Below, one piece after another: positions 14,019 through 40,779 of a DNA stretch of 49,758 nt (within the stretch, counting starts at the first letter, position 1; the number at the start of each line of letters is the position of its first letter). This DNA is from Candidatus Moraniibacteriota bacterium (GTDB lineage: Bacteria; Patescibacteriota; Minisyncoccia; Moranbacterales; UBA9337), in NCBI GenBank assembly GCA_023229615.1, contig JALNYX010000003.1:1-49758 (forward strand), in the 5' to 3' direction. The position numbers and the translations under genes are program-made. Under the pieces are notes generated by a model. That model ran no database searches. It was not told the DNA's origin and was given only the letters and a program-made list of their open reading frames with translations.

Positions 14019-14667
14019 TAATATACAATATTATTTTTGGGCTAGCTATAGACGAAAAATAATTGATAAACTCTCGGAAAAAAATAAATCTTTGTATACG
14101 GGAGTAGTTTTAGATATCGGAGGAAGAGACCGCGGTAAATTCAAAAAACCCAAAAAAAAAGTCGAAAACTGGATATTTGCCGATATTGAAGAAAAACATA
14201 ATCCAGACATGGTTTTGGATGTCATGGATATGCATGCTATTGCTAATAACAGCATTGATATAATCAGCGCCCTGGAACTCTTTGAGCACGTTAGCGTTCC
14301 CGAAAAAGGTATCGCTGAATGTTCTCGGGTGTTAAAAAATGGAGGTCTGCTTATTATTTCCATGCCATTTATGTATGGAACACATGCTGATCCATATGAT
14401 TTTCAGAGATGGACGAAAGCTAAGTGGGAATTAGTTCTTAATGAAAATAATTTAAATGTATTGAAAATTGAAGAAATGGGTTTTTTCTTTACCGTACTGA
14501 TGGATGCAATAAAAAATTTTTTAAAAAAATCCCATCGTATTTTTCGATACATTTCATATTGCTTTTACCCGATTTTCGATATAATCGCATCGCTTGATAA
14601 CATCAACAGCAAAAACCCCATCCTCAAATCATATGTAGGTGGTTATTTTATTATTGCAAAAAAATAA
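14011..14667 (+). CDS. SAM-dependent methyltransferase (Methyltransf_11-like)
   Basis: VLDIGGRDRG, ISALELFEHV, LKNGGLLIISMPF motifs. Confidence 0.8.
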   Translation: MFSNIQYYFWASYRRKIIDKLSEKNKSLYTGVVLDIGGRDRGKFKKPKKKVENWIFADIEEKHNPDMVLDVMDMHAIANNSIDIISALELFEHVSVPEKGIAECSRVLKNGGLLIISMPFMYGTHADPYDFQRWTKAKWELVLNENNLNVLKIEEMGFFFTVLMDAIKNFLKKSHRIFRYISYCFYPIFDIIASLDNINSKNPILKSYVGGYFIIAKK

Positions 14668-25866: not shown

Positions 25867-27516
25867 CTATTTAATCTTAAAGACTGTCATCGACTCAGAA
25901 TCATATTCTTTTTCGAAATAATCCGACGAATAAAGAGCGGAAAATTTCTCCCAATCATCCGTCTTAGCAACAACGAAATGAGACACTCCGGCACTCTTCC
26001 AAAATTCCCGGTCATCCGGAATTATCTCCCCTGAAAGCAACAAAACATGTTCATCCCAAATACTTTTTTCCGCTTCCAACAAAAGTCGGTTATCCATATT
26101 TTTTCCAGTAATCATTGTTTCCAGAAAAAAGGCATTAGCCGGATTAGCAACCATCGCTCTGTCGGCGAAATTCAATTCACAATACATATGCCAAGGCAAA
26201 AAAAGCACTTCATTTGTTTTAATATCCGCCTGAAGAACCGCCTCTGCCTCATACCAGCCCCGAGGATAATCATATGGCGCTATCTGACCATATGCCCCAA
26301 AAAGCAACGTACCCGCCCAGAGAAATGGAATAACTGCAACTGAAGCAGATGAGAAAAATCGCAAATAATTCTCTTTCTGAATATGCGCTATTTTCCCCAA
26401 ATACAAAACAACATAGGATATTCCCAATGGTGTCAAAAAAGCATAACTAAAGGCAATTATACCGGAGATTTTCTCCGTATCGCGCAATCCGCGAAAAAAA
26501 GGCAGCGTAGCGAAAAGAAAATCAATAATTGGACGAGTAAACGAATCGCCATAGCCAACAGAAAGCAAAAGAGCTGGAACAAAAACAACAGCTACTGCCC
26601 TAGCCAAAACATTTCTTCGACGAATTTCCATCAACGCCCCAATAAAAGAAAAAAACATTACCGCTAAAGCAACCATCCACCACCAAGAAAAGAAATCCTT
26701 AAATTCCAAAAAATTACTACTCCAAAATCCATACAACGCCAGCACATTGAAATAGATTCCAAAATTCGGATCAGGCAAAGTGGAAAAAGCTTCAAAATCG
26801 CCAAGAGTAATATTGGAGAAAGTCTGGGAAGAATCAAAAAATCCTGCCAGCCAGAAACCATTGACCGCAAAAAATATTGCCACTAATATAGTCATTTTCA
26901 AAAAAACATTCCTCCATCCTCCCGACTCAAAATTTTCAACACTATCAACTTTTGACTTTTCAGATTTTATAGACTTAACAATCCCATAAACCAGCAAAAA
27001 CCCAGAGGCGATATATGCCCAATGGATACTGACAATCGGATAAACAGAAAAAACCAAAGCGAAAGCGACGAATCGCCGCCAAGTCCGAAGTTCGAAATAA
27101 CGATCAAGAAAAAACACGCTTACAGGGAAAAAACCATATCCCAACATCACTATCCAATGTCCAGCCATCAAGCGCTCACAAACATATAGATTGAGCATAT
27201 ACAGCAATCCCGCTCCTGTGGCAAGCGAACGACTCATATATCGCAAAGAAAGTCGATACATTGCAATCCCAGGCAAAAACAAAACCCCTGCCAAAACTAT
27301 TTTTTGCAAAACTTCCGCTGAAAAAAAATGATGCAACAAGAGCAACACCATTTGAAGTGGAAACCCTGAATCAATTCCTTTTCGCGCGATATCAGAAAAA
27401 TCCATTCCTGGACCCCAAACCATATCAATCAAAAACACAAAACCCGACCCAAAAAAAGGAGCTACGATCGCCGCAGTCAAACCGGAGAATATTAAAATAG
27501 GATAATACTTTTTCAT
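25867..27516 (-). CDS. Polytopic membrane protein (GT-C/polymerase-like), unknown specificity
   Basis: 549 aa with more than 12 hydrophobic segments and a soluble C-terminal approx. 120 aa. ATGA-type overlap with the upstream 137-aa gene. Confidence 0.65.
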   Translation of the reverse strand: MKKYYPILIFSGLTAAIVAPFFGSGFVFLIDMVWGPGMDFSDIARKGIDSGFPLQMVLLLLHHFFSAEVLQKIVLAGVLFLPGIAMYRLSLRYMSRSLATGAGLLYMLNLYVCERLMAGHWIVMLGYGFFPVSVFFLDRYFELRTWRRFVAFALVFSVYPIVSIHWAYIASGFLLVYGIVKSIKSEKSKVDSVENFESGGWRNVFLKMTILVAIFFAVNGFWLAGFFDSSQTFSNITLGDFEAFSTLPDPNFGIYFNVLALYGFWSSNFLEFKDFFSWWWMVALAVMFFSFIGALMEIRRRNVLARAVAVVFVPALLLSVGYGDSFTRPIIDFLFATLPFFRGLRDTEKISGIIAFSYAFLTPLGISYVVLYLGKIAHIQKENYLRFFSSASVAVIPFLWAGTLLFGAYGQIAPYDYPRGWYEAEAVLQADIKTNEVLFLPWHMYCELNFADRAMVANPANAFFLETMITGKNMDNRLLLEAEKSIWDEHVLLLSGEIIPDDREFWKSAGVSHFVVAKTDDWEKFSALYSSDYFEKEYDSESMTVFKIK

Positions 27517-27926
27517 TTTTTCGACTTTCGATTTTCAATTTTAAACTCTATTATCTGCTTGACTACTCCGATAACTAAAAAGAAATATACCCAAACTGCC
27601 ACCTGTTCCGCCCAAGCCTCGCCGACCGGAAGAATGTTTCGATTAGCCAATGCCAGCAATATAGGAATAATCACCAATCCAACCAAAGCCGCTCCGATAG
27701 AAATTCGCGAATCCAAATTCCAAAAAACCAGCACGAAAAAAAACAGCCAGAAAAAAATTCCTTCCAAAGTAAAATTGGCAAAATAAAAAAGACCAAGAGC
27801 AATAATGAAAAAAAACGCTCCGCCCACTTTGTCCCGCCGGGTAGAATTTTTCACCGACAAAAAAAGTTTGCGAAAGAAATTCCCCGCATCTTCCGGCATA
27901 AAAATATAATCTTTCAATTTGAACAT
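27513..27926 (-). CDS. Small membrane protein (3-4 TM)
   Basis: 137 aa, hydrophobic. Coupled to the 549-aa gene. Confidence 0.55.
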   Translation of the reverse strand: MFKLKDYIFMPEDAGNFFRKLFLSVKNSTRRDKVGGAFFFIIALGLFYFANFTLEGIFFWLFFFVLVFWNLDSRISIGAALVGLVIIPILLALANRNILPVGEAWAEQVAVWVYFFLVIGVVKQIIEFKIENRKSKK

Positions 27927-27939
27927 AAATTTATTTATA

Positions 27940-27967
27940 ATTATAACTTACACAACCAACCTTACAA
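27940..27967 (-). promoter_or_regulatory. Sigma70-like promoter for 27926->25867
   Basis: Minus strand reads TTGTAA-N16-TATAAT. The -10 ends 13 nt before the ATG, implying a very short leader. Confidence 0.45.
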
Positions 27968-27997
27968 CGCACGCCTCTTTATTATTGGATTATTAAA

Positions 27998-28033
27998 TGT
28001 GTCATTTAAATACGGCCGACGTAAGATGACACA
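27998..28033 (+). repeat. 36-bp composite palindrome, copy 1 (A.C type)
   Basis: TGTGTCATTTAAATACGGCCGACGTAAGATGACACA. It abuts the stop codon (28034-28036) of the PaaX-like gene. Confidence 0.9.
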
Positions 28034-28594
28034 TTAAATCAATTTGGAGAAATGCTTTTTCAAGACCGCTTCATTATCAATCTTTGTTGCCGTAATCACT
28101 CGGACATATCGTTCAGCACCATAAAGCGCTGTCAATTCCAAAATGGATTTTTCGCAAGGGTACGGCGACACAAACACACTATGTTGCAATTTGCGAAATT
28201 TGAGATTATGCAAATGTTCGCGCAATATATCTCGAAAAAGCCGATCTTTTTCAGGAACATCAAAAAGCACCACTCGCCACTTGCTATCCCAACGTTTCGG
28301 TTTTTTAAACATTATAGATCCACCGAGAAAATCCAACTTCCTGGCTTGTATTTTTCCCCTTGCAGTAAGAACCAACTCAAAAGATCCATCAGGAAGCTCA
28401 TTTTCTTTGATTAGTTTTTCTCTGGAAAGGGTGCGAATTGAACGGTTAAAATTTCGCTGATCAATATTTTTCCACTCACGTCGCACTTGACGCAATGTTT
28501 TGAAGTATTGCCTGGGAGATGAAGCACAACCAAGCGCCACTCCGCCCATAAGCGTAAGAAGGATTTTTTGCTGTACTGATCCGAATTTATACAT
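28034..28594 (-). CDS. PaaX-like small regulator (winged-helix N-terminus plus Cas2/VapD-like ferredoxin-fold domain)
   Basis: WRVVLFDVPEKDRLFRDILREHLHNLKFRKLQHSVFVSP matches the PaaX middle-domain pattern (W..V.FD.PE..R..R..LR..L...F..LQ.SV). N-terminal helix-rich segment. Confidence 0.55.
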   Translation of the reverse strand: MYKFGSVQQKILLTLMGGVALGCASSPRQYFKTLRQVRREWKNIDQRNFNRSIRTLSREKLIKENELPDGSFELVLTARGKIQARKLDFLGGSIMFKKPKRWDSKWRVVLFDVPEKDRLFRDILREHLHNLKFRKLQHSVFVSPYPCEKSILELTALYGAERYVRVITATKIDNEAVLKKHFSKLI

Positions 28595-28602
28595 ATTAAC
28601 AA

Positions 28603-28713
28603 TGTATCATAATTCCACGACCGACGGAAGATGACACAAAAAACAGGGATTACATACTATACTATTGGATTAAAAAATGTGTCATTTAGATACGGCCGAC
28701 GGTAGATGACACA
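28603..28713 (+). repeat. Two 36-bp palindromes: copy 2 (28603-28638, hybrid B.C type) and copy 3 (28678-28713, A.C type), separated by a 39-nt linker
   Basis: TGTATCATAATTCCACGACCGACGGAAGATGACACA and TGTGTCATTTAGATACGGCCGACGGTAGATGACACA. The linker is homologous to 32503-32541. Confidence 0.9.
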
Positions 28714-28714
28714 A

Positions 28715-28750
28715 ATAGAAGATTCTGTGAAGACTTCTATTTTAATTTTA
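28715..28750 (+). terminator. Hairpin plus T-tract (terminator-like), copy 1
   Basis: atagaag-N12-cttctat followed by tttaatttta. A near-identical copy lies at 32715-32750. Confidence 0.4.
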
Positions 28751-28795
28751 TCGCATCCTCCACTGCCCTTGCTAATTTCCTTGCCTTCCTTCTTT

Positions 28796-29011
28796 TCACA
28801 AAATTTTACCCTGTTTAATTTTTCTTTTATTTAACATGGCATAACCCAAATACCCAAGACAGCCAAACAATGTTGTTCCACTTATTAGCAAGCCTAAATA
28901 GAACCATCTTTGGGGGAAGAATTCGATGGTCATTTCTTCAATGTCATAACTACCGTCATCATTCAAAATACAGCCCGTACTTTCAACTCTATAACTTTCT
29001 ACTTTATACAC
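28796..29011 (-). pseudogene. Displaced paralogous copy of the C-terminal membrane-anchor segment of the 1044-aa protein
   Basis: Encodes ...NDDGSYDIEEMTIEFFPQRWFYLGLLISGTTLFGCLGYLGY..., compared with LNADGSYDIEMTIEFFPQRWFYLGLLISGTTLAGCLGYLGY at 32816-33010. A 29-nt identical core lies at 28896-28924 = 32940-32968. Confidence 0.7.
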
Positions 29012-29014
29012 TTT

Positions 29015-30046
29015 TCAACTTTTTCTTTTATTTTTTCTTCCTTCCAAATATTTTTTCACTTCCCGATCAAAATCAGAAATATAATTTTTATCTTGCTCAA
29101 TCCTAAATTTTTCATACTCTCCCAACGCAAGCGCTTTTGCAACATCATGACTAATTTTCCCGGCGTTCATCAAAATTTCATATTCACTGAATTTGAGAAA
29201 TGCATTAAGTTTCTGAACCCAATCCTTCATAAACATGGCTCGACCACGTGCCGCTTGCATTTCAGCATAATCCAAATACATATTACCGATGCGGTTTAAA
29301 TGCATCAATTCTTTTTTATCCAAATAATTTTTAGCGATGATTGTATCACTCGGCATGATTTTTCCATTCGGCGATCTCTGCCATGAAGTTAATCCCATTT
29401 TTTCTTTTTCACTATTAGCCCGATCTGAAATGATTTCTGCTGCAGTTTTGCCAGTGATAGCAAAATGAAGCTTATTCTGTACGGTAGCAAAAAATTCTTT
29501 ACTCTCACGCGCTTTTGGAGAATAATCAATAGCGGTTACATAAATATCAGTGATTTTTTGATAAATTCTGCGCTCGCTGGTGCGAATATCCCTAATTTCC
29601 TCATAAAGATCATCAAAATATCTGGCGCTAAAACGAGACCCATATTTCATTCGGTTAGAATCCAACGCATAACCTTTGTGAATATAATTTTTTAAAACTC
29701 CGGTTGCCCATTGGCGAAATTCCGTACCTCGCTCGGAATTTACGCGATAGCCGACAGCGATAATCACTTCAAGGCTATAAAAAGCAAGTTTTCTGGAAAT
29801 TTCTCGTTTTCCTTCTTTTTGAACTGCCGAGAATTCCTCGGTAGTTGAATTTTTATCAAGCTCATTTTCTTTGTAGATATTTTTCAAATGAAGTGATATG
29901 TTATCACTTGTGCAATCAAAAAGCTCGGCCATTTTCTTTTGCGTAAGCCAAATATTTTCTTCTGCGTAAAGCACCTCAATATTCACCGAACCTTCGGATG
30001 ATTGATAAAATGCGATTTGATTGTCAGGTATTTTTTTTATTGCCAT
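29015..30046 (-). CDS. rhuM: RhuM family protein (Fic/DOC-related virulence-associated family)
   Basis: ENIWLTQKKMAELF...YSLEVIIAVGYRVNSERGTEFRQWATGVLKNYIHKGYA are characteristic RhuM N-terminal and central motifs. 343 aa. Confidence 0.85.
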   Translation of the reverse strand: MAIKKIPDNQIAFYQSSEGSVNIEVLYAEENIWLTQKKMAELFDCTSDNISLHLKNIYKENELDKNSTTEEFSAVQKEGKREISRKLAFYSLEVIIAVGYRVNSERGTEFRQWATGVLKNYIHKGYALDSNRMKYGSRFSARYFDDLYEEIRDIRTSERRIYQKITDIYVTAIDYSPKARESKEFFATVQNKLHFAITGKTAAEIISDRANSEKEKMGLTSWQRSPNGKIMPSDTIIAKNYLDKKELMHLNRIGNMYLDYAEMQAARGRAMFMKDWVQKLNAFLKFSEYEILMNAGKISHDVAKALALGEYEKFRIEQDKNYISDFDREVKKYLEGRKNKRKS

Positions 30047-30200
30047 ATATTTAAAAATGTTTACAACTATGCCTTAATTATATACAAACAATACATGAAT
30101 ATCAATTTGTTTTAATTACTTCTTTATTACACTAAATCCATGTCAGAATAGTTACCTACTAACATAAGGATTACCGCTCTCTAACACACTCCCCTTTAAA

Positions 30201-30307
30201 TTTTTTGTTTTCAATTTTGATTACACTGATATTATACCACTGGATGTTTTTGCGTCAAATATTTCGTGTTTTATTCGGTGGAGTCAGATTATTGTTGGAT
30301 TAAAAGA
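30201..30307 (-). repeat. 107-bp promoter module, copy 1 (96% identical to 31955-32061)
   Basis: 4 mismatches in 107 nt by hand alignment. Ends in the TTGTTGGATTAAAA linker that precedes palindrome copy 4. Confidence 0.85.
30231..30258 (-). promoter_or_regulatory. Near-consensus promoter driving rhuM
   Basis: Minus strand reads TTGACG-N16-TATAAT with extended -10 TGGTATAAT. Confidence 0.6.
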
Positions 30308-30343
30308 TGTGTCATTTAGATACGGTCGACGGGAGATGACACA
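30308..30343 (+). repeat. 36-bp composite palindrome, copy 4 (A.C type)
   Basis: TGTGTCATTTAGATACGGTCGACGGGAGATGACACA, located between the divergent rhuM and zeta-toxin promoters. Confidence 0.9.
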
Positions 30344-30382
30344 TTTTCCGAGGAAGTGTTAATGGGAGGGGGTTAATACAAA

Positions 30383-30411
30383 TTGTCATCTTAATAAAAA
30401 AATGCTAAAAT
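30383..30411 (+). promoter_or_regulatory. Promoter of the zeta-toxin gene; predicts a leaderless mRNA
   Basis: TTGTCA-N17-TAAAAT with TGc extended -10. The -10 ends 6 nt before the ATG at 30418. Confidence 0.55.
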
Positions 30412-30417
30412 GCAAGC

Positions 30418-31128
30418 ATGAAACAAGCTGAAAACACCAAAATAGCTGAGGATGCTAAAGCTTTCATCAAAAAGAAAAAACGCGACCTCATAGATAAATT
30501 TGCCGACCTTGAAAAATTTCCTCCATCAGAAAAGCCATTTTCGTTTTTTATGGCTGGTTCTCCTGGCGCGGGAAAAACTGAATTCTCAAAAAGGCTCATA
30601 GAATCAATGATGCCTACGCCCATCGTAAGAATAGACGCCGACGAGATAAAAGAATTCATTCCTCAATATACAGGCAAAAACTCTGACATCGTACAGGGAG
30701 CGGCTTCAATTGCGGTGGATAATTTAAATTACTACGCCCTAAAACACAACCAAAATTTAATCATGGATGGCACGTTTGCACATTACGGGGTGGCACGCAA
30801 AAATATAATGAATTGTCTGAATAAAAAAAGGCAGATTAGCGTATTTTATATATACCAAGATCCTGTCGTCGCTTGGGATTTCACCCGGAAGCGCGAGAAG
30901 CTTGAGGGTCGCTATGTTCCAAAAGAAGCCTTTATCGAAGCATTTTTTAAGGCGAAAGAAAACGTACAGTTGATCAAGGAGGAGTTTGGCGAAAAAATAG
31001 AGCTCAACCTGATCATAAAAAATGACAAGAATGAAGACGAAGAAATCAAATCTAATATTAGCTCGAATATTGACGATTTTGCAATAATCGCATATAATAA
31101 GGAATCTCTAAATACAATCCTATGCTGA
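30418..31128 (+). CDS. Zeta-toxin family P-loop kinase
   Basis: Walker A FFMAGSPGAGKTEF followed by VRIDADE. 236 aa, typical zeta/PezT size and layout. Confidence 0.8.
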   Translation: MKQAENTKIAEDAKAFIKKKKRDLIDKFADLEKFPPSEKPFSFFMAGSPGAGKTEFSKRLIESMMPTPIVRIDADEIKEFIPQYTGKNSDIVQGAASIAVDNLNYYALKHNQNLIMDGTFAHYGVARKNIMNCLNKKRQISVFYIYQDPVVAWDFTRKREKLEGRYVPKEAFIEAFFKAKENVQLIKEEFGEKIELNLIIKNDKNEDEEIKSNISSNIDDFAIIAYNKESLNTILC

Positions 31129-31319
31129 AAAAAATAATTTCAAAATTTTCTCATAATAAAAAATCTCCAAAAAAAGAGGTCAATTTTTTCGATTTGTCCC
31201 AAGTTGAAAAAGAGCAGCTCATAAAAAAAGCTGCCAGACTTTCGTCCCAAGATCAAAAAGACCTTTTGAAAGAATACGATCGCAAATTCGGCGATCTGCA
31301 AACCAACTCTTGCAAATAA
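31122..31319 (+). CDS. Small Lys-rich protein overlapping the toxin stop (ATGCTGA); possible cognate partner
   Basis: 65 aa. 7-nt overlap with the toxin gene. A strong terminator follows. Confidence 0.45.
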   Translation: MLKKIISKFSHNKKSPKKEVNFFDLSQVEKEQLIKKAARLSSQDQKDLLKEYDRKFGDLQTNSCK

Positions 31320-31350
31320 ACAAGCGCGCGCCGCATTATCTCCCTTTCAA

Positions 31351-31380
31351 AAAATCCTGCCATAGTGGCAGGATTTTTAT
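31351..31380 (+). terminator. Rho-independent terminator of the toxin operon
   Basis: aaaatcctgcca-tag-tggcaggatttttatt. Confidence 0.75.
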
Positions 31381-31411
31381 TGTACCATTCTGAATTTGCG
31401 CTTATCGATAA

Positions 31412-31513
31412 TGTATCATAATTCCACGGCCGACGGTAGATGACACAAAAGATAGGGATTGTGTTTGTTGGGTTGAATGTGTCATTTAGATACGGTCGAC
31501 GTAAGATGACACA
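31412..31513 (+). repeat. Two 36-bp palindromes: copy 5 (31412-31447, hybrid B.C type) and copy 6 (31478-31513, A.C type)
   Basis: TGTATCATAATTCCACGGCCGACGGTAGATGACACA and TGTGTCATTTAGATACGGTCGACGTAAGATGACACA, with the 30-nt linker aaagatagggattgtgtttgttgggttgaa. Confidence 0.9.
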
Positions 31514-31547
31514 AATAGAGATGATGGGTAGTTTGATTGTGGGGTTG

Positions 31548-31664
31548 CTATGTTGTTTCTATCTTCCGCTTTTCCTCGCCCTGCCGAAGCCTTTGGCGAA
31601 GGCGGGTGCGGCGGTTAATGAGGTCGTATCCGAGATAACTTAGACAGCCAAATAATGTTGTGTC
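31548..31664 (-). pseudogene. Third remnant of the membrane-anchor/tail coding segment
   Basis: Hand translation gives DTTLFGCLSYLGYDLINRRTRLRQRLRQGEEKRKIETT*, compared with GTTLAGCLGYLGYDFVKRRKRRAGERERERVGDME* (intact gene) and GTTLFGCLGYLGYAMLNKRKIKQGKIL* (28796 copy). Confidence 0.6.
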
Positions 31665-31954
31665 TCAGTTAAAATTGCATCTAGATTATAGTGTTTTATA
31701 TCACGAGCAACTTCCCTTGAAGATTCCTTTTGAACTATCCGGAAATTCCGGATAGTTGAATTTTCATCCAATTCTTGCTCTAAATAAATATTAACCAGAT
31801 GCTCATTGACTGTGCGAACATTAACATTAAATAGTTCGGCGATTAATTTTTGCGTCAACCAAACATTCTCATCTTCAATTCTAACGTGGATTTTTTGTTT
31901 ATCGCCAAAAGATTGATAAATGGTAATTTGCTGTTTTTTTGAGTGCTTTTTCAT
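31640..31954 (-). pseudogene. Truncated RhuM-like gene (N-terminal approx. 95 aa only), running out of frame into the anchor remnant
   Basis: ENVWLTQKLIAELF...KHYNLDAIL aligns with the first third of the 343-aa RhuM protein, then ends TETQHYLAV*. Confidence 0.65.
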
Positions 31955-32061
31955 TTTTTTGTATTCAATTTTGATTACACTGATATTATACCACTGGATG
32001 TTTTAGCGTCAAATATTTCGTGTTTTATTCGGTGGAGTCAGATTATTGTTGAATTAAAAAA
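31955..32061 (-). repeat. 107-bp promoter module, copy 2
   Basis: 96% identical to 30201-30307. Here it directly abuts the start codon at 31954. Confidence 0.85.
31985..32012 (-). promoter_or_regulatory. Near-consensus promoter (duplicate of 30231-30258)
   Basis: Minus strand reads TTGACG-N16-TATAAT with TGGTATAAT. Confidence 0.55.
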
Positions 32062-32713
32062 TGTGTCATTTAGATACGGCCGACGTAGGATGACACAAAT
32101 TATAGATGGGCCGGGATTGAGTGTTGATAAAATACAGGGATTGTGTTTGTTAAATTGAGAATGTGTCATTTAGATACGGCCGACGGTAGATGACACAAAT
32201 GTTGAATGTGTCATTTAGATACGGCCGACGTAGGATGACACAAATTATAGGGATTGTGTTTGTTGGATTAAAATAGGCTTGTTGTGTCATTTAGATACGG
32301 CCGACGTAGGATGACACAAATTATAGATGGGCCAGGATTGAGTGTTGATAAAATACAGGGATTGTGTTTGTTGGATTAAAATAGGCTTGTTGTGTCATTT
32401 AGATACGGTCGACGTAGGATGACACAAAAGATAGAGATTGTGTTTGTTGGATTAAAATAGGCTTGTTGTGTCATTTAGATACGGCCGACGTAGGATGACA
32501 CAAAAAACAGGGATTACATACTATACTGTTGGATTACAAAATGTGTCATTTAGATACGGCCGACGGGAGATGACACAAAAGATAGAGATAGTGTTTGTTG
32601 AATTGAGAATGTGTCATTTAGATACGGCCGTGGAATTATGACACAAAAAATAGGGATTGTGTTTGTTGAATTGAGAATGTGTCATTTAGATACGGTCGAC
32701 GGGAGATGACACA
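32062..32713 (+). repeat. Array of nine 36-bp composite palindromes (copies 7-15) with recurrent linkers
   Basis: Copies at 32062, 32162, 32207, 32283, 32391, 32467, 32542, 32610 (hybrid A.B' type) and 32678. Linkers are 64, 9, 40, 72, 40, 39, 32 and 32 nt and share ...GGGATTGTGTTTGTTGGATTAAAA.... Confidence 0.9.
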
Positions 32714-32714
32714 A

Positions 32715-32750
32715 ATAGAAGTTTTTGTGAAGACTTCTATTTTAATTTTA
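32715..32750 (+). terminator. Hairpin plus T-tract (terminator-like), copy 2
   Basis: atagaagt-N10-acttctat followed by tttaatttta. It lies 65 nt beyond the stop of the 1044-aa gene, so it may act bidirectionally. Confidence 0.4.
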
Positions 32751-32815
32751 TCACCAACCCTTTCGAGAAGCAAAAAAACTTTTTTTTATTTCTACTTCTG
32801 TTTCTGTTTCTGTTC

Positions 32816-35800
32816 CTATTCCATATCACCCACCCGCTCTCGCTCCCGTTCTCCCGCCCTGCGCTTTCTTCGTTTTACAAAGTCATAACCCAAATAGCCA
32901 AGACAACCTGCGAGAGTTGTGCCGGAAATTAACAATCCCAAATAGAACCATCTTTGGGGGAAGAATTCTATGGTCATTTCGATGTCATAACTTCCATCAG
33001 CATTCAGCTTGCAGGCACTATTCAATTCATCACTTTCCGACTTTTGACTTTTGACTTTTGACTCACACAATTGTTCCGGTTCAACAAACCAGCCATTCAA
33101 AAATCCATTCAATTCAAAATGCTTGTCATCCGAAATCCGATCAGGCTTTACCCAAGGAATCCACGACGCGATAAATCGCGAGTATAAAGTCGAAAGTCGA
33201 AAGTTAAAAGCATTTGAGTCAACGATGCCAATCTTATTATTAGTAAGTTGTGCCTGCCACTGCGGATGAAAACTCTCACTCATCGCCAAATAAAACGGCG
33301 TAGTCGCCCCCTTGATATGAACTAATTTTTTGGTAGGATTCAATAAATCAAATGTTACTTCCTTAGGATCGACAAAATTAGTCTGAGGATCACTCACGAG
33401 ATAGTAATGATTTTGAATGTCAGGAAGCTCAATTAAATGAAAATTATCGTAAAGTGTCCTAATATTGGTCTTTTCATCTTGACTGAAAGAATAAACTGCA
33501 AGTGATGCTTCTTCCACACCATTTGGAATTGAGATGATTTTAGAAAAATGATGCCACTCATTATTTGTTATTGGAAGTCGTTTACTGATGTAGTTATTCT
33601 TACCAAAACCCAAGTAAAATGCTGCGATTTTTCCATCATCACTCTTATAATCAAAAGATAATAAATATGAAGCGTTACTTTTTAAATAAATTTTTCCCGT
33701 AGAAGTACACGCATTATGACGAATCGAGGATAATTCTAAAGAATTTAGACCATCCGTCCTATCGCTTGATAATTTCATTGAAATTAAGGGATTGTCATCG
33801 TAAGCATTGCAATCACTCACTGCTTTCTGCCACATTCCATCTTCAAAAGAAAAATTTAAAATATCATTTTTATAACTAAAATTATCATGTTTGTATGTAA
33901 TTCCCAATGAACTACCTGATAAAACATCAATAGCACTGTAATAATCCCTAATAATATCATCATCTTTTTCTAAAATTTTAATTTGAGATTGCAGTATCTC
34001 TATTTCTGCTGTTATATTATTAGAATATAAATAAGTTTTTCCATTTGTTGGAATATCCCTAAGAACAATTTCTTTATTTTGTATTTCTTCTGGTGTTAGA
34101 AATTCAAATAATCTAGTTATTTTTTGTGTTGGAAATTCAAATTTTTTTTCGGAAACAATAAAATCTTCTTTATCGCTAATGGTATCTAAAACAAATTCAA
34201 ATTTTTTATTAATATTTAAATATGAATCATATTGTGTCAAATCTAAAAATGACCTAAAATAATTTTTATAATTACTATTCTCATACACAACCAATTCCGT
34301 GGTTCCAATATCAATTCGCTTTAAATATGATAATTTGTCAAGATTATCAATATACCATTGACGGATATTAGGATTTTCCCTACCTCCATAATCTATAAAA
34401 AAATTATCATCATTACTATAATCGCTCAACGGCACTACGATATACTTAATAGACCCTGCATCCAAAAGATGATCTGAAAAATATTTATTAAATGGATCAA
34501 TGATTTTTAAAAATCTATCTCTCGGATGAATATCACCATCAACAAAATTTTTCCACATTTTGTCAGCTATATTAACACCAACTAATCGTGGGTGTTTGTC
34601 TGTATATGTGGCCCATTTACTTGTATGCGGAACCCAATATGTTCGAAAAAAATATGACTGAGAGTTTATAAATTCATTGTAGATTTTATAATCATCTGGT
34701 ATTTGCCTTGGAACAAACAATGTTTCAACACCTCCAGAAAAAAATGACCTTGTGTTTCCTAAAAATATAAATACCACTATAATAGTTAATATAATTCCGA
34801 CATTCTTTATAACTTTATTTTTATTCAATGTTACATAATAAACAAAACTACTAATTAAAACTGAGTAGCCAATGGCTATAAGAAAATAAAACTTACTTGC
34901 CTCTCTAAAAACTTGAAATCCTGGAATATGGGTAAATAGCCATTTATACAGCTCTGGAAAAGGGCTTACAGCTTGTTTAGATAATAAAATCCCAAAAATT
35001 GATATGATGGAGAAAAAAAGAACAAGACGATTTTTTTTCCCCAAAATTAAACCACAAAAAGATATTACAGGAACCAAGAAAAAATAAATTGGGATATGTT
35101 GTGTTTCAAAAACTGCAATTTTACCTCCTGTCCACCAAGGATGAAATAACGCAATAGACCTTGTAAGATTATAAAAACTACTCCCCCATAATTCTCTGCT
35201 AAGTATGGCATTTTCTTGACCACCACCGCTCATAATCATGCCCAGTATCCAGTAAATACTCAAAAAAAGAAATACCGAAAAAGAAACTATTGAATAAATA
35301 ATTATTGAAAAATCAAAATTTTCAAATAATTTAAAAATTGTATAGATAGCTAGTACCACTGAGACAATTAAGGCAACCCTAGGTTCATAAGAACTCAAAC
35401 CAAATAAGGTTAAGGCAGATACAATACAAAATAAAATTTTCTTTTCGTTTAACGCTTTTATAAAAAATAATATTGCAAATGGTGCTAATGCAAATGCAGT
35501 TGCTAATGTTATGTGTCCTGTTTGAAGTGTGAGTATGTAGCTATTAAAAGAATATACACCAGCACCAATGCAAGCAGCTAATACATTTTTAAATATATAT
35601 CTGTTTAAAAAATATGCCGAGAGTGGTGTAAATATAACGATTGGGAAAAAATATTGTATTCTTTCGATTATCTCCCATCTTAAAAAATTATTTAATGCTA
35701 AAACACCAGATAATGCATACGTTGGAGCTTGCCCGACATCAGAAAGATGCCTACCAAAATTTTGATCAGATAACCATAGCGAAAAATAGTTTATCCTTAG

Positions 35801-35950
35801 TGAATACAAAGTCTCATTGAAAAAATAAGTCCAATCACCATGAGTTATAATGGCATCACTAAATAGCCATCTATGATAAATTAACATAGTGACCATGCAT
35901 AAAATTATAATTGGCCATTTCTCTTTTGCTTTTTTAAAAAGATAATTCAT
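32816..35950 (-). CDS. 1044-aa membrane protein: polytopic N-terminal approx. 400 aa (GT-C-like), large extracytoplasmic domain, C-terminal TM anchor with Arg/Glu tail
   Basis: More than 12 N-terminal hydrophobic segments. C-terminal FFPQRWFYLGLLISGTTLAGCLGYLGY helix. First gene after the four downstream GT genes of the minus-strand operon. Confidence 0.8.
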   Translation of the reverse strand: MNYLFKKAKEKWPIIILCMVTMLIYHRWLFSDAIITHGDWTYFFNETLYSLRINYFSLWLSDQNFGRHLSDVGQAPTYALSGVLALNNFLRWEIIERIQYFFPIVIFTPLSAYFLNRYIFKNVLAACIGAGVYSFNSYILTLQTGHITLATAFALAPFAILFFIKALNEKKILFCIVSALTLFGLSSYEPRVALIVSVVLAIYTIFKLFENFDFSIIIYSIVSFSVFLFLSIYWILGMIMSGGGQENAILSRELWGSSFYNLTRSIALFHPWWTGGKIAVFETQHIPIYFFLVPVISFCGLILGKKNRLVLFFSIISIFGILLSKQAVSPFPELYKWLFTHIPGFQVFREASKFYFLIAIGYSVLISSFVYYVTLNKNKVIKNVGIILTIIVVFIFLGNTRSFFSGGVETLFVPRQIPDDYKIYNEFINSQSYFFRTYWVPHTSKWATYTDKHPRLVGVNIADKMWKNFVDGDIHPRDRFLKIIDPFNKYFSDHLLDAGSIKYIVVPLSDYSNDDNFFIDYGGRENPNIRQWYIDNLDKLSYLKRIDIGTTELVVYENSNYKNYFRSFLDLTQYDSYLNINKKFEFVLDTISDKEDFIVSEKKFEFPTQKITRLFEFLTPEEIQNKEIVLRDIPTNGKTYLYSNNITAEIEILQSQIKILEKDDDIIRDYYSAIDVLSGSSLGITYKHDNFSYKNDILNFSFEDGMWQKAVSDCNAYDDNPLISMKLSSDRTDGLNSLELSSIRHNACTSTGKIYLKSNASYLLSFDYKSDDGKIAAFYLGFGKNNYISKRLPITNNEWHHFSKIISIPNGVEEASLAVYSFSQDEKTNIRTLYDNFHLIELPDIQNHYYLVSDPQTNFVDPKEVTFDLLNPTKKLVHIKGATTPFYLAMSESFHPQWQAQLTNNKIGIVDSNAFNFRLSTLYSRFIASWIPWVKPDRISDDKHFELNGFLNGWFVEPEQLCESKVKSQKSESDELNSACKLNADGSYDIEMTIEFFPQRWFYLGLLISGTTLAGCLGYLGYDFVKRRKRRAGERERERVGDME
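33039..33063. repeat. 7-bp tandem repeat (GACTTTT)x3.6 inside the CDS; inverted partner (AAAGTCG)x2.9 at 33186-33205
   Basis: gacttttgacttttgacttttgact, and aaagtcgaaagtcgaaagtt about 125 nt away in opposite orientation. Confidence 0.85.
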
Positions 35951-35955
35951 CTAAA

Positions 35956-37128
35956 TTATTTTCCAACAATTCTTTTTGCTAATTTTGGATATATATTTGA
36001 AGATTTAAATCGTTCAAAAATTAAACTAGCATCAGATCTTATCACAAATCCGTTAATAACTAAATTCTTTATTGACTTAACAAACTCATCAATAGTTTCA
36101 GGAAGAAACCCCCAATAATTATCTGCTATAACATCCTTTGGCCCCGGGGCAGGAAAAGCAATAACTGGTACATTTACAGACAATGCCTCTAAAATCGTAT
36201 AACCAAAAGTTTCATTTTTACTTGTTAATACCAACAAATTACATTGCGACAACAACGAAGGAATATATTCATTATTAACATATCCGTGAATTGTGATATT
36301 TATCCCCTCGTTTGACATTTTATCAAAAATACATTTATCAGGACCCTCCCCGATAATGTGCCACATAATTTTATTTTCAATATCCTTATTGCATTTTTCA
36401 ATAATTTCCTTTAGATAAAGAACGCCCTTGTCTTTAGACAGTCTACCAATCCAAGCTATATGATAAAAATCATCCACAGATTGCATCCCAAATTTATATG
36501 TTTGTAAATTTTTTAAAAAAATATCATGCTGGAATGAATTTGGTATAAGAAAAACATTATCCGAAAATCCGTATTTACATAAAATTTCCTTGTCATAAGT
36601 ATTCAATACATGAAACTGCCTGACTCCTTTAGTTAAAAATTTATAAAAAAACTTTCCATATAAAAAATTATGTATTTTTTCATGCATTGATATGCAACTT
36701 TTAAAATGTAGCTGGGTATGGCATCCAAATGTTATAGGTGGGATATTTTTATATCCAATAAAAAATTTTAAAAAGAATGCTTCTACTATTTCATTTTTTG
36801 TATAAATCACATCATACTCCTTTAATATTTCCCTTAAATTAATAAAAGACGTTGCCCTTCTGTATAAAATTCCATTTAATTTTTTTTCTATTTCTTCATT
36901 ATTAAAATAATTACTGACTTTATTTTTTTTTCTCAAATAATAAAAATTTAAAAGATTACTAAATTTTCTAGAAAAATTTTCATCCATTGTTATGATGTCG
37001 ACATGTGCTAATTCATGTTTTTTAACGAATAGAGCAAACTCTAGAAAAAATTTTTCTAGACCACCACGATAACCGAACCCTGTTAACTTGAATAATGCAA
37101 TTTTTTTCTTTCTATATAACTTTTTCAT
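35956..37128 (-). CDS. GT4 glycosyltransferase
   Basis: TSKNETFGYTILEALSVNVPVIAFPAPGPKDVI motif. Confidence 0.8.
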   Translation of the reverse strand: MKKLYRKKKIALFKLTGFGYRGGLEKFFLEFALFVKKHELAHVDIITMDENFSRKFSNLLNFYYLRKKNKVSNYFNNEEIEKKLNGILYRRATSFINLREILKEYDVIYTKNEIVEAFFLKFFIGYKNIPPITFGCHTQLHFKSCISMHEKIHNFLYGKFFYKFLTKGVRQFHVLNTYDKEILCKYGFSDNVFLIPNSFQHDIFLKNLQTYKFGMQSVDDFYHIAWIGRLSKDKGVLYLKEIIEKCNKDIENKIMWHIIGEGPDKCIFDKMSNEGINITIHGYVNNEYIPSLLSQCNLLVLTSKNETFGYTILEALSVNVPVIAFPAPGPKDVIADNYWGFLPETIDEFVKSIKNLVINGFVIRSDASLIFERFKSSNIYPKLAKRIVGK

Positions 37129-38191
37129 ATAAATAATCCCTGTTAAATTTTAAATAAAAATCTCTTGCTTTAAAATAAAAATTATCTGTGCGAAAGTTTT
37201 TAATTTTCATCTTTAATACACTAATTTCCATTTTATCAAAAACAATGCCCAATGAATTATCTTTAATAAACTTAGCTATCTCTGGTACATTTGACATAAA
37301 AACAGGAATTCCACAAGCAACATATTCACCCACCTTTGATGGAGAACAATAATAAGTCCATTTTGATTGAAGATTATAAGGAGCTAGCCCGATTCCATCG
37401 AATTTTTTTAAATATTCTAGCACAAATTCATGGGACTTTTGATAATGAGTTTCAACATTGATATTTTTATCTTTACACAAATCCAGCACTCGCTCCCAAT
37501 CATCACCTTGGCCTATAATAACAAGTTTTTTGATTTCAGAATGTAAAACATTAAGCAAATCAAATAATCCATGCTCCTTAGTAACACTACCAACATAAAT
37601 AAATTTATCTTTTTTAATATCTTTTTTAATAAATTCTGGCTCATCAATAAATATACCATTTGGAATAACCATACTCTTCTCCTTTTTTAATCCAAGTTTG
37701 ATCCTAGCCCGCTCTGCACGCTTTGTATTTGAAATTACAATATCACTATATTTCAAAGCTACTATTTCTATTAAATAATATACCTGATTCAATGCCCAAT
37801 TTTTATGAAATCTATCCTCAGAATAATCAGATGCAAAAAATATGATTTTCTTTACTCTTTTTCTTAATATATATTTTACTAAAATTCCGCTAAGAGTATC
37901 GAAATTATTAGCTCCAATAAAAACATCGAACTTAGTTTTTTTCAAATATTTTAAGGAAATATAAATATCTTTTATAAAATTATAAATACTCATCTTCCTC
38001 CTTTGTATTCTCGTAATTTCCTTTAAATTTTCATAAAAAAATGTTGATTCATTTTCATATTTATCCAGAGGATGCGAAAGCCTGCTAACAAAGTATCCTT
38101 TACGAAGCAAATATGCCTCAAGATAGTTAACCGATCCACTCTTTTTGTTTGCATGATTTAAGATAAAAATCTTCAATTCTCTATTTTTCAT
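37112..38191 (-). CDS. GT4-like glycosyltransferase
   Basis: YCSPSKVGEYVACGIPVFMSNVPEI. GT-B layout. Overlaps both neighbouring genes. Confidence 0.7.
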   Translation of the reverse strand: MKNRELKIFILNHANKKSGSVNYLEAYLLRKGYFVSRLSHPLDKYENESTFFYENLKEITRIQRRKMSIYNFIKDIYISLKYLKKTKFDVFIGANNFDTLSGILVKYILRKRVKKIIFFASDYSEDRFHKNWALNQVYYLIEIVALKYSDIVISNTKRAERARIKLGLKKEKSMVIPNGIFIDEPEFIKKDIKKDKFIYVGSVTKEHGLFDLLNVLHSEIKKLVIIGQGDDWERVLDLCKDKNINVETHYQKSHEFVLEYLKKFDGIGLAPYNLQSKWTYYCSPSKVGEYVACGIPVFMSNVPEIAKFIKDNSLGIVFDKMEISVLKMKIKNFRTDNFYFKARDFYLKFNRDYLYEKVI

Positions 38192-40290: not shown

Positions 40291-40774
40291 GAACCACTGA
40301 TTCTCACGTGATTTTATTGATTGCACGTGATTAGAGTTTCGTTATTTTACATATCTCTTAACTTCTAAACTTCTAGCACCAAAATTTATCAGCAAACCCA
40401 GCTTAACCTTATAGGCTTCGATGTAGTTTATTAGCTGAGCGATGTTCACATCTTCTAGTTTTGTTATCGCCTTCAACTCAACCATAACATCTCTGTCAAC
40501 CAAAAAATCAACTCTTCTAGTGCCGACCAATTGTTCTTCGTAGAAAATATCCATTTCTTTTTCACGTTCAAACTTCAATCCCTCTTTTTCAAATTCAATC
40601 GCCAATGATCTTTGATAGATAACCTCCTGAAAACCATTGCCCAGGGTACGATGCACCTTCTGCGCGCATTTGATAATCTTTCCCGTCACATCTGACTTAT
40701 AATATTTTTCATCTATATAATTATCCATAAAAATCATGTGTACTTATGTGTAAATCAGTGAGAATCAGTGGTTC
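40291..40774 (-). mobile_element. 484-bp cassette: GxxExxY gene bounded by 17-bp perfect inverted repeats
   Basis: GAACCACTGATTCTCAC at 40291-40307 and its exact reverse complement at 40758-40774. The match extends to 23 of 24 positions with one gap. Confidence 0.45.
40342..40737 (-). CDS. GxxExxY family protein (PD-(D/E)XK nuclease-like fold)
   Basis: LGNGFQEVIYQRSL (GxxExxY), RVDFLVDRDVMVELKA (D...ExK) and LINFG motifs. 131 aa. Confidence 0.8.
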   Translation of the reverse strand: MIFMDNYIDEKYYKSDVTGKIIKCAQKVHRTLGNGFQEVIYQRSLAIEFEKEGLKFEREKEMDIFYEEQLVGTRRVDFLVDRDVMVELKAITKLEDVNIAQLINYIEAYKVKLGLLINFGARSLEVKRYVK

Positions 40775-40779
40775 TGACT

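Follow-up and report, generated by a model that had tools for sequence, protein, structure and literature searches.

Jackson et al. (2009; cited in PMC5361080) described C-terminal displacement arrays at rhs loci, and the sequential displacement seen at T6SS effector genes of Vibrio cholerae is a published precedent for the mechanism (PMC5361080). In these arrays, as at the locus described here, a conserved gene body is followed by a same-strand string of orphaned 3' regions, which are alleles of other strains rather than duplicates; insertions accrue one after another, the newest adjoining the gene, there is no integrase, and homology on one side with an illegitimate join on the other has been proposed. 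At rhs and T6SS loci the incoming 3' end supplies a new toxin tip together with an immunity gene, and tip diversity is the point, whereas here a glycosylation-type envelope protein receives an equivalent, conserved membrane anchor, and the hosts are CPR bacteria, the present one with a tiny genome.

ICE and CIME elements accrete in tandem at fda in Streptococcus. Integrase-driven islands at gene ends (tRNA and tmRNA genes, dusA, fda) resemble the present locus in that the element supplies a replacement end, direct target repeats bracket the insert, insertions accumulate in tandem and relatives have empty sites. They rely, however, on a fixed crossover core and a dedicated tyrosine integrase, the sole universal feature of islands at the 5' end of dusA (PMC4482086), whereas at the present locus no integrase was found and the junctions vary. 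Defence-island hotspots of the E. coli pan-genome also occupy fixed positions between core genes, with cargo differing among strains of one species, but this cargo lies mostly on recognisable mobile elements (PMC10121019), in contrast to the single genes found here between repeated neighbour-gene ends and without mobility genes. In naturally transformable bacteria, foreign DNA is likewise trapped beside homology, without a site-specific enzyme, by insertion-duplication (Campbell-type) integration and by homology-facilitated illegitimate recombination (references in PMC5361080 and PMC3240628). These processes may leave a duplicated target segment; most of what is known of them comes from laboratory crosses, whereas here a recurrent natural route apparently builds multi-cassette arrays. 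Integron arrays, like our locus, consist of equally oriented single-gene cassettes with imperfect palindromes between them, downstream of a resident promoter module, but here there is no IntI, attC-type sites are absent and the repeated separators include a piece of host coding sequence.

The target gene (32816-35950, minus strand, as are the following features unless stated) was delineated from its ORF, homologues and C-terminal anchor in the window, the whole 49,758-nt stretch of DNA analysed. It encodes a 1044-aa YfhO-like multi-pass membrane protein in which a domain profile search gave a weak, sub-threshold CBM_4_9-like region. Its homologues are CPR proteins, part of them named YfhO family, and the gene family is large, with several members in some genomes. 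The gene is a compositional chimera, with a GC content of 36-44% in its last ~0.5-0.7 kb against 22-31% elsewhere, and the break coincides with the start of long orphans. The anchor motif ...DGSYDIEMxIEFFPQRWFYLGLLISGTT... is conserved throughout the protein family, so that anchor similarity by itself does not define an att site.

Alignment, tblastn and translation delimited three copies of the anchor, whose translations were exactly those given by an earlier sequence-only reading of this DNA. Copy 1 (32816-33037) is the functional 3' end of the gene. Both other copies are orphans lying in series downstream on the same strand: copy 2 (31548-31664) is 5'-truncated, beginning within the TM segment, lies out of frame and lacks a start, and ends in a ...RKIETT tail resembling the native gene tail of the relative L001, while copy 3 (28796-29011), also characterised by pN/pS, has 71 codons and lies right behind a RhuM stop. 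Copies 1 (32865-33037) and 3 (28821-28999) are 76% identical over 179 nt (E 2e-30). A tblastn search of the window with the last 120 aa of the gene retrieved the orphans at 29104-28805 (E 1.7e-26) and 31661-31563 (E 2e-6) and no further copy with E < 0.9. Just upstream of the duplicated segment, TRF detected a heptamer repeat, (GACTTTT)3.6, in a coding linker (33039-33063), a candidate microhomology or junction zone; comparable 7-9-nt A-rich repeats mark the left edge of orphans in contigs L011 and L098.

The divergence between copies bears on their origin. The window anchors differ with pS 0.62 and pN 0.059 (pN/pS ~0.1), and similar values were obtained for the copies of L011 (0.51 and 0.063) and L099 (0.56 and 0.033). 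Because the differences are mostly synonymous, the copies are alleles from different lineages, neither local duplicates nor decayed paralogues, and on this pattern we regard them as diverged, foreign, functional alleles of the same orthologue end. The same pattern is expected if only the functional gene end was later replaced by allelic exchange. Local copying of the gene end by a long target-site duplication or unequal crossing-over, with divergence afterwards, would account for direct, same-strand repeats and for the greater likeness of copies within a locus (82.5% between window copies 1 and 3 against at most 78% to anchors of other contigs; 84-92% among L011 copies). However, a non-functional duplicate should gain both types of change, which argues against such an origin where synonymous sites are near saturation and replacement change is very low; moreover, an orphan in a sibling strain mixes two allele types, and the two RhuM genes of the window are only 47% identical, so that the units are not recent duplicates. 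In-situ duplication is thus strongly disfavoured, and we consider it very unlikely.

The size of the gene family, with its multiple members in some genomes, and additional upstream gene fragments in L098 would also suit decay of tandem full-length paralogues. For this window that origin is refuted: neither orphan has any trace of the upstream 850-970 codons beside it. Orphan starts coincide exactly with cargo gene ends, relatives combine a single gene with an empty site, and the orphans are allelic to the end of this orthologue rather than of a paralogue, all of which leave paralogue decay an extremely remote prospect. The data rather support displaced or imported 3' ends left behind by insertions. 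Retention of the orphans for a function, as short membrane peptides (46-71 aa with a single TM helix and a basic tail) co-expressed with the cargo toxins, for instance as antidotes or membrane partners, seems improbable to us. Open frames do persist (a 71-aa ORF in the window, 49-aa ORFs in L011), pN/pS is low and the orphans directly follow the cargo in the same orientation, but copy 2 is neither in frame nor provided with a start, an in-frame stop precedes L011 copy C, hairpin insertions and deletions break up the L098 copies, and the L070 fragment has just 22 codons. The low pN/pS of the orphans is explained by their history as part of a working gene.

As the sequence-only reading had noticed, each orphan is directly preceded by a RhuM gene and each of these by a shared promoter module. 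The full RhuM gene (30046-29015; PF13310, E 3.7e-104) precedes copy 3; a truncated one, RhuM' (31954-31640, first ~96 codons; E 5.9e-5 over the first 30 profile positions only), is joined out of frame to copy 2, its end being the exact point of fusion to the truncated anchor. The promoter modules (31949-32061 and 30195-30307, found by sequence comparison) carry TTGACG-16-TATAAT at 32012-31985 and 30258-30231 and are 95.5% identical over 111 nt (30195-30307 against 31949-32059). Again as previously read, a hairpin lies behind anchor 1 (32713-32752) and anchor 3 (28713-28752); the hairpins are 95% identical, and hairpin plus first palindrome 94-95%. A repeat search including TRF found nine 36-nt palindromes with related spacers, TGTGTCAT-N7-CGGCCG-N7-ATGACACA, at 32062-32713 (no strand, like those that follow), two behind anchor 2 (31412-31513), one upstream of promoter module 2 (30308-30343) and two between anchor 3 and a PaaX-like gene (28603-28713). 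Each consists of two 15-nt arms and a 6-nt centre; they flank every module, include hybrid arm combinations, and adjoin every anchor copy in the window and L011. The PaaX-like regulator gene (28594-28034; Cas2-like middle domain, PF20803, E 9e-22) and the palindrome right behind its stop (28033-27998) form the distal part of the inserted block (27998-28594), a layout also present in L009 and L094. Alignment identified, at 31374-31411 (80% repeat match), a remnant of the point where a second PaaX-like gene began, with a mutated ATG; the former place of that gene is occupied by a plus-strand cassette (30418-31319) comprising a zeta-toxin gene (30418-31128; PF06414, E 1e-39) and an overlapping 65-aa ORF.

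Comparison with relatives established an insertion polymorphism and bore out the earlier view that insertions had displaced the old 3' end. L001 and L105 have empty sites with a single anchor, the large gene being followed directly by homologues of p137 and p549; p137 (27513-27926), the first core gene past the island, is 72% identical in amino acids to its L001 neighbour and also found in L105. In the sibling strain L103, 98.3% identical to the window over 2.2 kb, the slot retains the promoter module and orphan anchor, and a 274-aa Bro-N/DinD-like gene replaces RhuM: cargo is swapped at strain level. The L103 orphan is mosaic, of anchor-1 type in its 5' part and of anchor-3 type in its 3' part, and the cargo-anchor junction differs from that of the window. 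Unrelated CPR contigs likewise have orphan 3' ends stacked amid defence or toxin cargo: L011/L012 (gene, AlbA_2, anchor, RhuM, anchor), L070 (gene, RhuM, anchor fragment, AbiEii), L098/L099 (three to four decaying 3' ends between AlbA_2, DUF3800 and AbiEi), and L010 and L094, with long orphans. The L011 copies are also mosaic. RhuM itself can move as a unit: a segment comprising its own promoter (30105-30077), the CDS and ~30 nt past the stop (28985-30106, delimited by nucleotide identity to L011 and called PDC-S05 by PADLOC) encodes a protein 94.5% identical to that of L011 (89.8% in nucleotides), whereas the host target genes are only 33-46% identical and the flanking anchors are local in type.

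The sequence-only reading had likened the insertions to integration at tRNA or tmRNA genes and pointed to a 29-nt identical core; an integrase-driven mechanism with a fixed att core found no support. We found no integrase, transposase or other recombinase gene in the 49.7-kb window or in related arrays (at least eight loci); given the short length and metagenomic origin of the contigs, a recombinase may be encoded elsewhere in these genomes. Orphans measure 52 to 184 codons, their left ends varying, and breakpoints differ among strains. The block shared by anchors 1 and 3 (28896-28924 = 32940-32968) is real, identical even at synonymous sites, but does not behave as a fixed att core: copy 2 is too short to contain it and the L103 breakpoint lies outside. 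It looks like a fixed crossover core, and a gene-conversion patch explains it equally well. Anchor-plus-RhuM units recur in distant hosts (L011/L012, L070). No anchor copy was found on phage, plasmid, viral or IMG/VR records.

A rival reading, essentially that earlier model, would have non-autonomous integrative cassettes moved by a site-specific recombinase encoded elsewhere (host Xer-type or unrecognised), with the 3' end of the gene forming part of attP and a core in the 29-nt block, the A-rich linker repeats or the CGGCCG-centred palindromes. Direct repeats of the target end on either side of the cargo, a gene that stays intact, tandem arrays, empty sites, the 29-nt block and the two-arm palindromes with their hybrids all accord with it, as do L011 copies B and C, which have identical boundaries, each closing in a palindrome, as from a site-specific system. 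Flanking repeats are also enriched at RhuM loci elsewhere (17/70 against 6/93 control ORFs, p 0.0025). A recombinase acting in trans could have its sites in the palindromes and in the short A-rich repeats that border orphans on the left. Against this stand the lack of an integrase at all loci, the variable junctions, the coreless copy 2 and the absence of anchors from viral, phage and plasmid records; palindromes of the same family also border PaaX-like genes at sites without a visible cassette (L009), so that operators are a better fit than att sites, and the RhuM'/anchor-2 fusion, more simply explained by an illegitimate junction, would require an additional deletion after integration. We judge such cassettes possible but rather unlikely.

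The best fit, and on balance a probable one, is integrase-free C-terminal displacement with later cassette swapping. The conserved last ~60-180 codons of the envelope gene would serve as a landing pad for recombination. Incoming DNA from related bacteria would bring a working 3'-end allele with its downstream palindromes, promoter module and RhuM, DinD-like, zeta-toxin or similar gene; its upstream side would pair homologously with the resident gene, and the other would be joined illegitimately at a microhomology of a few bases or within another anchor copy. The gene end would thus stay intact and the previous end move downstream as an orphan, no element-encoded integrase being involved. The two orphans behind the gene, each behind a RhuM gene with its module, agree with the earlier count of at least two tandem insertions. 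The older event probably brought anchor 2, a PaaX-like copy, module and RhuM, with its join in front of anchor 3. With the newer one would have come anchor 1, hairpin, palindrome array, module and, broken at the incoming end, RhuM', the join lying inside anchor 2. The zeta-toxin cassette would have replaced the second PaaX-like copy later. Repeated flanks, with module or palindromes on one side and anchor on the other, would permit cargo swaps between strains by ordinary homologous recombination, and anchor copies may trade patches through gene conversion. The enzymology would be RecA-type recombination plus illegitimate joining, probably following DNA uptake. Displacement is known from rhs and T6SS loci; what would be new here is its action at a non-toxin gene, together with the stand-alone, unrelated genes (RhuM, DinD-like, zeta toxin, AlbA_2, AbiE) that follow the anchor as cargo.

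The 1044-aa ORF of the YfhO-like envelope membrane protein (35950-32816, minus strand) ends in ...KLNADGSYDIEMTIEFFPQRWFYLGLLISGTTLAGCLGYLGYDFVKRRKRRAGERERERVGDME followed by the stop codon. A tblastn search of the window with its last 120 residues identified three places only, namely the gene itself, 29104-28805 (E 1.7e-26) and 31661-31563 (E 2e-6). The two downstream segments on the same strand, anchor 2 (31664-31548) and anchor 3 (29011-28796), translated exactly into the peptides that the sequence-only reading had assigned to them. Read 5' to 3' along the minus strand, the gene with its own end, anchor 1, is followed by a hairpin, nine 36-nt palindromes (TGTGTCAT-N7-CGGCCG-N7-ATGACACA), a promoter module, the truncated gene RhuM' (31954-31640, minus strand), cut after ~96 codons, and anchor 2, which lacks its 5' part and is fused out of frame to RhuM'. 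Two palindromes, 38 nt left from the beginning of a PaaX-like gene, a zeta-toxin gene and a 65-aa ORF on the opposite strand, a palindrome and a second promoter module then lead to a full RhuM gene with its own promoter (30046-29015, minus strand). Anchor 3 comes next, with a hairpin, two palindromes, a PaaX-like gene carrying a Cas2-like middle domain and a last palindrome, after which the core genes p137 and p549 follow. All 15 palindromes of the window (15/15) lie within 27998-32713. Scans of the window for tRNA/tmRNA genes and Rfam families gave no matches, so it contains no hidden RNA-gene target.

The modular composition proposed from the sequence was borne out. A RhuM-like gene directly precedes each remnant, anchor 3 starting after the stop codon of the full copy and anchor 2 being joined to the cut one, and the promoter module said to precede each RhuM gene is 95.5% identical over 111 nt between the two, with a near-consensus promoter in each. 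The hairpin and palindrome set reported behind two of the three anchors was found behind anchors 1 and 3 (94-95% identical). These non-coding modules are altogether 93-95% alike, compared to 76-82% nucleotide identity for the anchors that they flank and 47% protein identity between RhuM and RhuM'. Within the window, anchors 1 and 3 are 76% identical over 179 nt (E 2e-30). The 29-nt identical core described between them (28896-28924 = 32940-32968) is real, and its identity extends to synonymous positions, beyond what amino-acid conservation demands. The anchor motif is itself kept throughout the protein family, with homologues from CPR bacteria such as WWE3 and Saccharimonadia, and therefore similarity alone does not define an attachment site. 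An exact-protein look-up returned no record identical to the big protein or to RhuM.

Synonymous and replacement changes were compared between the copies. In a core of 38 codons, 62% of the synonymous sites (pS 0.62) and 5.9% of the replacement sites (pN 0.059) differ between anchors 1 and 3; the values of pS/pN for anchor copies on two other CPR contigs with orphan ends are 0.51/0.063 (L011) and 0.56/0.033 (L099). Both types of change are expected in a silent duplicate, and therefore the copies diverged as working gene ends in separate lineages. By this measure the orphans are alleles from other lineages and not local duplicates, an in-situ duplication of the gene end being disfavoured by the high pS and low pN. 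The same values speak against decayed tandem paralogues. At each event, either a foreign gene-end allele would have come in or the resident functional end would have been replaced later. The tail of orphan anchor 2 (...EEKRKIETT, 31548-31600) resembles the native tail ...KNRKIETTEIITQK of the homologous gene in a relative (L001:13715-13760); the tails of anchors 1 and 3 are unrelated to it.

Comparison with relatives lacking the island, which had been suggested as a check, located the unoccupied site in L001 (GCA_041583775.1) and L105. In L001, 39 nt separate the homologous gene from a p137 homologue (72% amino-acid identity), with a p549 homologue (62%) next; there is a single anchor and there are no palindromes. 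The closest full-length homologue, P0003 (on L105/L106), is likewise succeeded directly by the core genes; both relatives are distant, with 46-72% amino-acid identity in the flanking genes. From this direct succession the whole of 27927-32815 is therefore an insert relative to the ancestral order. A sibling strain, L103, is 98.3% identical to 28963-26769 over 2195 nt and carries other cargo: four palindromes, the promoter module (96%) and, in the place of RhuM, a 274-aa Bro-N/DinD-like gene. Behind that gene come an orphan anchor with the hairpin and palindromes, then the PaaX-like gene and p137. The orphan of L103 starts at another position than that of the window (...GSHDIEM...) and is a mosaic, with bases diagnostic of anchor 1 in its 5' part and of anchor 3 in its 3' part. 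The cargo therefore varies among strains of one species, and recombination occurred within the anchor. The strain-level exchange of RhuM for a DinD-like gene shows the site to be active at present.

Anchor-plus-RhuM modules were also found elsewhere; when the 71-aa orphan was used as a query, only short ORFs were returned. In L011/L012, a big gene 33-46% identical to that of the window is followed by an AlbA_2/Schlafen-HTH gene, an anchor copy, RhuM and another anchor copy. Between this RhuM and that of the window, identity is 94.5% in protein and 89.8% in DNA over 1123 nt, and the common stretch runs exactly from the gene's own -35 box (window 30105) to ~30 nt past its stop codon. The three L011 anchor copies are 84-92% alike in their core, mosaics of one another and unlike those of the window. 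In the L070 locus, which comes from a 558-kb contig, an 800-aa family member precedes RhuM, a 66-nt anchor fragment and an AbiEii gene. In L098/L099 the last 110-170 codons recur as three or four decaying copies among AlbA_2 fragments, DUF3800 and AbiEi; these copies have lost internal stretches and gained small hairpin insertions. L010 has an orphan of 170 codons and L094 one of 184, behind which lie palindromes of related type and a PaaX-like gene. The cargo at all these loci is toxin- or defence-like. Across these comparison sequences, all of them metagenomic contigs and many of them short, the pattern is documented in five or more CPR lineages, and one species is polymorphic for it.

Two further features were observed in and around the anchor copies. 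Immediately 5' of the anchor, the coding linker contains short A-rich tandem repeats with a 7-9-nt period (GTCAAAA, GTTATAAA), which lie on the left edges of orphans or close to them (window 33039-33063; L011:5830-5845, 7905-7925, 9310-9340; L098:1196-1240, 2403-2447, 3472-3516). Because this period is not divisible by three, the anchor would change frame if slippage altered the repeat copy number. Small hairpin elements rich in GC interrupt the linker or TM-coding part of anchor copies (L011:5843-5880 and its copies B and C; L098:1351-1430, 3626-3693), and their translations give motifs such as PAQGWSASGGES; similar PLSRGE-type motifs exist in the proteins P0124 and P0127.

The sequence-only reading had explained the island by elements that integrate into the end of a gene, as at tRNA or tmRNA genes. 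The insertion stands, as do the direct repeats of the target gene's end, which bracket the insert and leave the gene intact (E 2e-30 and 2e-6), and the unoccupied site in relatives (L001, L105). The integrase and the fixed core that such a model predicts were not found. No recombinase was detected by Pfam scans of the cargo ORFs of L010, L011, L070, L098 and L099 and of 45 window ORFs, which make up most of those with at least 110 aa, a set that leaves out a few plausible plus-strand ORFs such as 8707-9333, 10369-11196, 13476-14018 and 14011-14667. The candidate att core expected from aligning the three segments could not be defined: only copies 1 and 3 overlap the 29-nt block, copy 2 lacks it, the switch point in L103 lies 3' of it, and the repeat copies have no single constant crossover core. 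The 29-nt identity would be explained equally well by a gene-conversion patch as by a crossover core. Orphans start 52 to 184 codons before the stop, varying by event, and the junctions between cargo and anchor differ between the two sibling strains. Anchor copies outside chromosomes were absent from IMG/VR (single protein and alignment queries), INPHARED phages and PLSDB plasmids, and the palindrome was absent from IMG/VR. A site-specific enzyme supplied in trans and acting on the palindromes or on the A-rich linker repeats is a variant of such integration that we consider unlikely: repeats bracketing the insert and empty sites stand on its side, varying orphan starts and junctions on the other.

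The data fit an integrase-free C-terminal displacement. A series of orphaned 3' regions of one gene follows the intact gene in the same orientation (window, L011, L098, L099), and the orphans have the substitution pattern of acquired alleles (pS 0.62 and pN 0.059, with similar values in L011 and L099). A variable toxin domain with an immunity gene was not found in the 3' region; the repeated segment is a conserved TM anchor and the cargo consists of separate ORFs. We propose that the upstream side of the incoming DNA would be anchored by homology, while its other end would be joined illegitimately. The fusion of RhuM' to anchor 2 may be such an illegitimate junction, the incoming fragment having ended inside RhuM', so that no extra deletion is needed to account for it. 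The repeated flanks would later permit exchange of cargo by ordinary homologous recombination (window versus L103), and anchors may exchange patches by conversion (L011, L103). We infer the joining enzymology, and likewise the order of events and which anchor is native. C-terminal displacement is known from rhs genes and has been suggested for T6SS effector arrays of V. cholerae, in which the incoming DNA would pair by homology on its upstream side and undergo an illegitimate join at its other end (PMC5361080). The topology is the same and likewise involves no integrase, but there a variable toxin tip is displaced, whereas here it is the conserved anchor of a glycosylation-type envelope protein, with unrelated single-gene cargo. 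Also among the closest known systems are integrase-borne islands, which restore the end of the gene that they enter, as at dusA (PMC4482086), and defence hotspots between core genes (PMC10121019); the former are defined by an integrase and a constant core, both absent here.

Composition changes within the big gene itself. A low-GC block at 33500-38100 (22-31% versus 36-44% around it) extends over the first three quarters of the gene and over two GT4 glycosyltransferase genes upstream, while the final 0.5-0.7 kb of the gene has 36-44% GC, like the core genome. By its GC profile the 1044-aa gene is a compositional chimera. The homologous protein P0011 is 61% identical to the big protein over the last 350 residues and only 31% over the remainder, and the composition break coincides with the start of the long orphans at other loci. 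These observations suggest that the glycan-building part of the locus may have been swapped as a unit, with one breakpoint within the gene.

Among the cargo genes, RhuM (30046-29015) matches PF13310 over its full length (347.9 bits against a curated cut-off of 33.7) and the PADLOC candidate PDC-S05, while RhuM' covers only the first 30 positions of the profile, below the cut-off. RhuM has been predicted as a toxin domain of R-M loci (PMC3710099). Since it is often the sole gene between repeats, we considered RhuM as its own recombinase; this was rejected because the published analysis and PADLOC make it a toxin or defence candidate and no nuclease or recombinase motif is suggested. In the region 30418-31378, the zeta-toxin gene (PF06414, 136.6 bits) has no upstream epsilon-type partner; the 65-aa ORF, for which no family was matched, shares 7 nt with the 3' end of the toxin gene. 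Between the zeta cassette and the PaaX-like remnant is a hairpin flanked on either side by runs of T and A (~31349-31378). At 40342-42135, glycosyltransferase genes flank a Schlafen/AlbA_2-HATPase_c_4-HTH gene (451 aa) paired with a PD-(D/E)XK_3 gene (131 aa), and this AlbA_2 type is also cargo in the L011 and L098/L099 arrays; a second cassette at the pair was discarded, no flanking repeats being found.

RhuM genes carry flanking repeats more often (17/70) than control ORFs (6/93; Fisher p 0.0025, in one 80-locus set with a simple control). In many unrelated metagenomic loci, RhuM is bracketed by imperfect direct repeats of local sequence, 30-280 nt long (L023:2330-3641; L032:505-1648; L074:5760-7064; L038:1245-2571; L052:400-1641; L040, L057, L061, L069). 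The repeated sequence can be the 3'-terminal 84 nt of an 802-aa gene lying upstream, with mostly synonymous differences, the initial 39-60 nt of an adjacent gene, or a terminator hairpin, and the downstream copy often begins a few bases from the RhuM stop. Tandem pairs of diverged RhuM paralogues were also observed (L074:5760-8118; L068:6001-7400; L025); in L074 the same 60-nt 5' fragment of a neighbouring gene (MIKLSRSKIELLFDCPRCF...) precedes each RhuM, which mirrors the window.

Palindromes of 26-36 nt with a CG-rich 6-nt centre (CGGCCG or CGATCG) lie on both sides of PaaX-like genes (wHTH and Cas2-like domain) in three lineages, the sites being window 27998-32713, L009:60-890, L094:3750-4200 and L011:6075-6100, 8150-8175 and 9580-9605. 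Their sequence co-varies with the PaaX-like protein (homologues 71% and 62% identical), and they have three types of half-site in differing combinations. They are probably operators of the PaaX-like regulator. A palindrome-pattern scan of the genome collection gave single sites only, in 8 genomes; it provided the PaaX-like link (L009) and nothing on anchors. Expansion in the window has produced an array of nine palindromes repeating every 68 nt, with another copy number in L103. A CRISPR array was rejected for the 36-nt repeats, because the spacers are mutually related and TRF resolves the array into tandem units of 68 nt; the sole weak Cas2 match falls inside the PaaX_M domain, below the cut-off. 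An integron was rejected on two features: no integrase was found, and the separators are 36-nt palindromes and host coding sequence.

CPR/Patescibacteria have very small genomes with few recognisable mobile elements, so how they take up and exchange defence genes is poorly understood. The locus and its counterparts show a concrete route, in which a conserved gene end is reused as the entry point for toxin and defence cassettes. Each event leaves an orphan 3' end as a fossil, and stacked orphans give the relative order of acquisition. C-terminal displacement, so far known for polymorphic toxin genes, is thereby extended to an ordinary envelope gene, and RhuM, a candidate defence gene, is flagged as often bracketed by duplicated pieces of its neighbours. 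We advance as a tentative possibility, rather doubtful at present, that CPR bacteria spread single defence or toxin genes integrase-free on a short "portable homology arm", the strongly conserved end of a widespread envelope gene, a general cassette mobility by recombination only that would build defence arrays; in a more radical variant of this idea, the CGGCCG-centred palindromes and the PaaX/Cas2-like protein may form an integron-like platform. At other RhuM loci, the portable arm would be the first or last 30-280 nt of the adjoining gene, and after DNA uptake the cassette would recombine into distant hosts, restoring the interrupted gene and leaving a displaced end each time.
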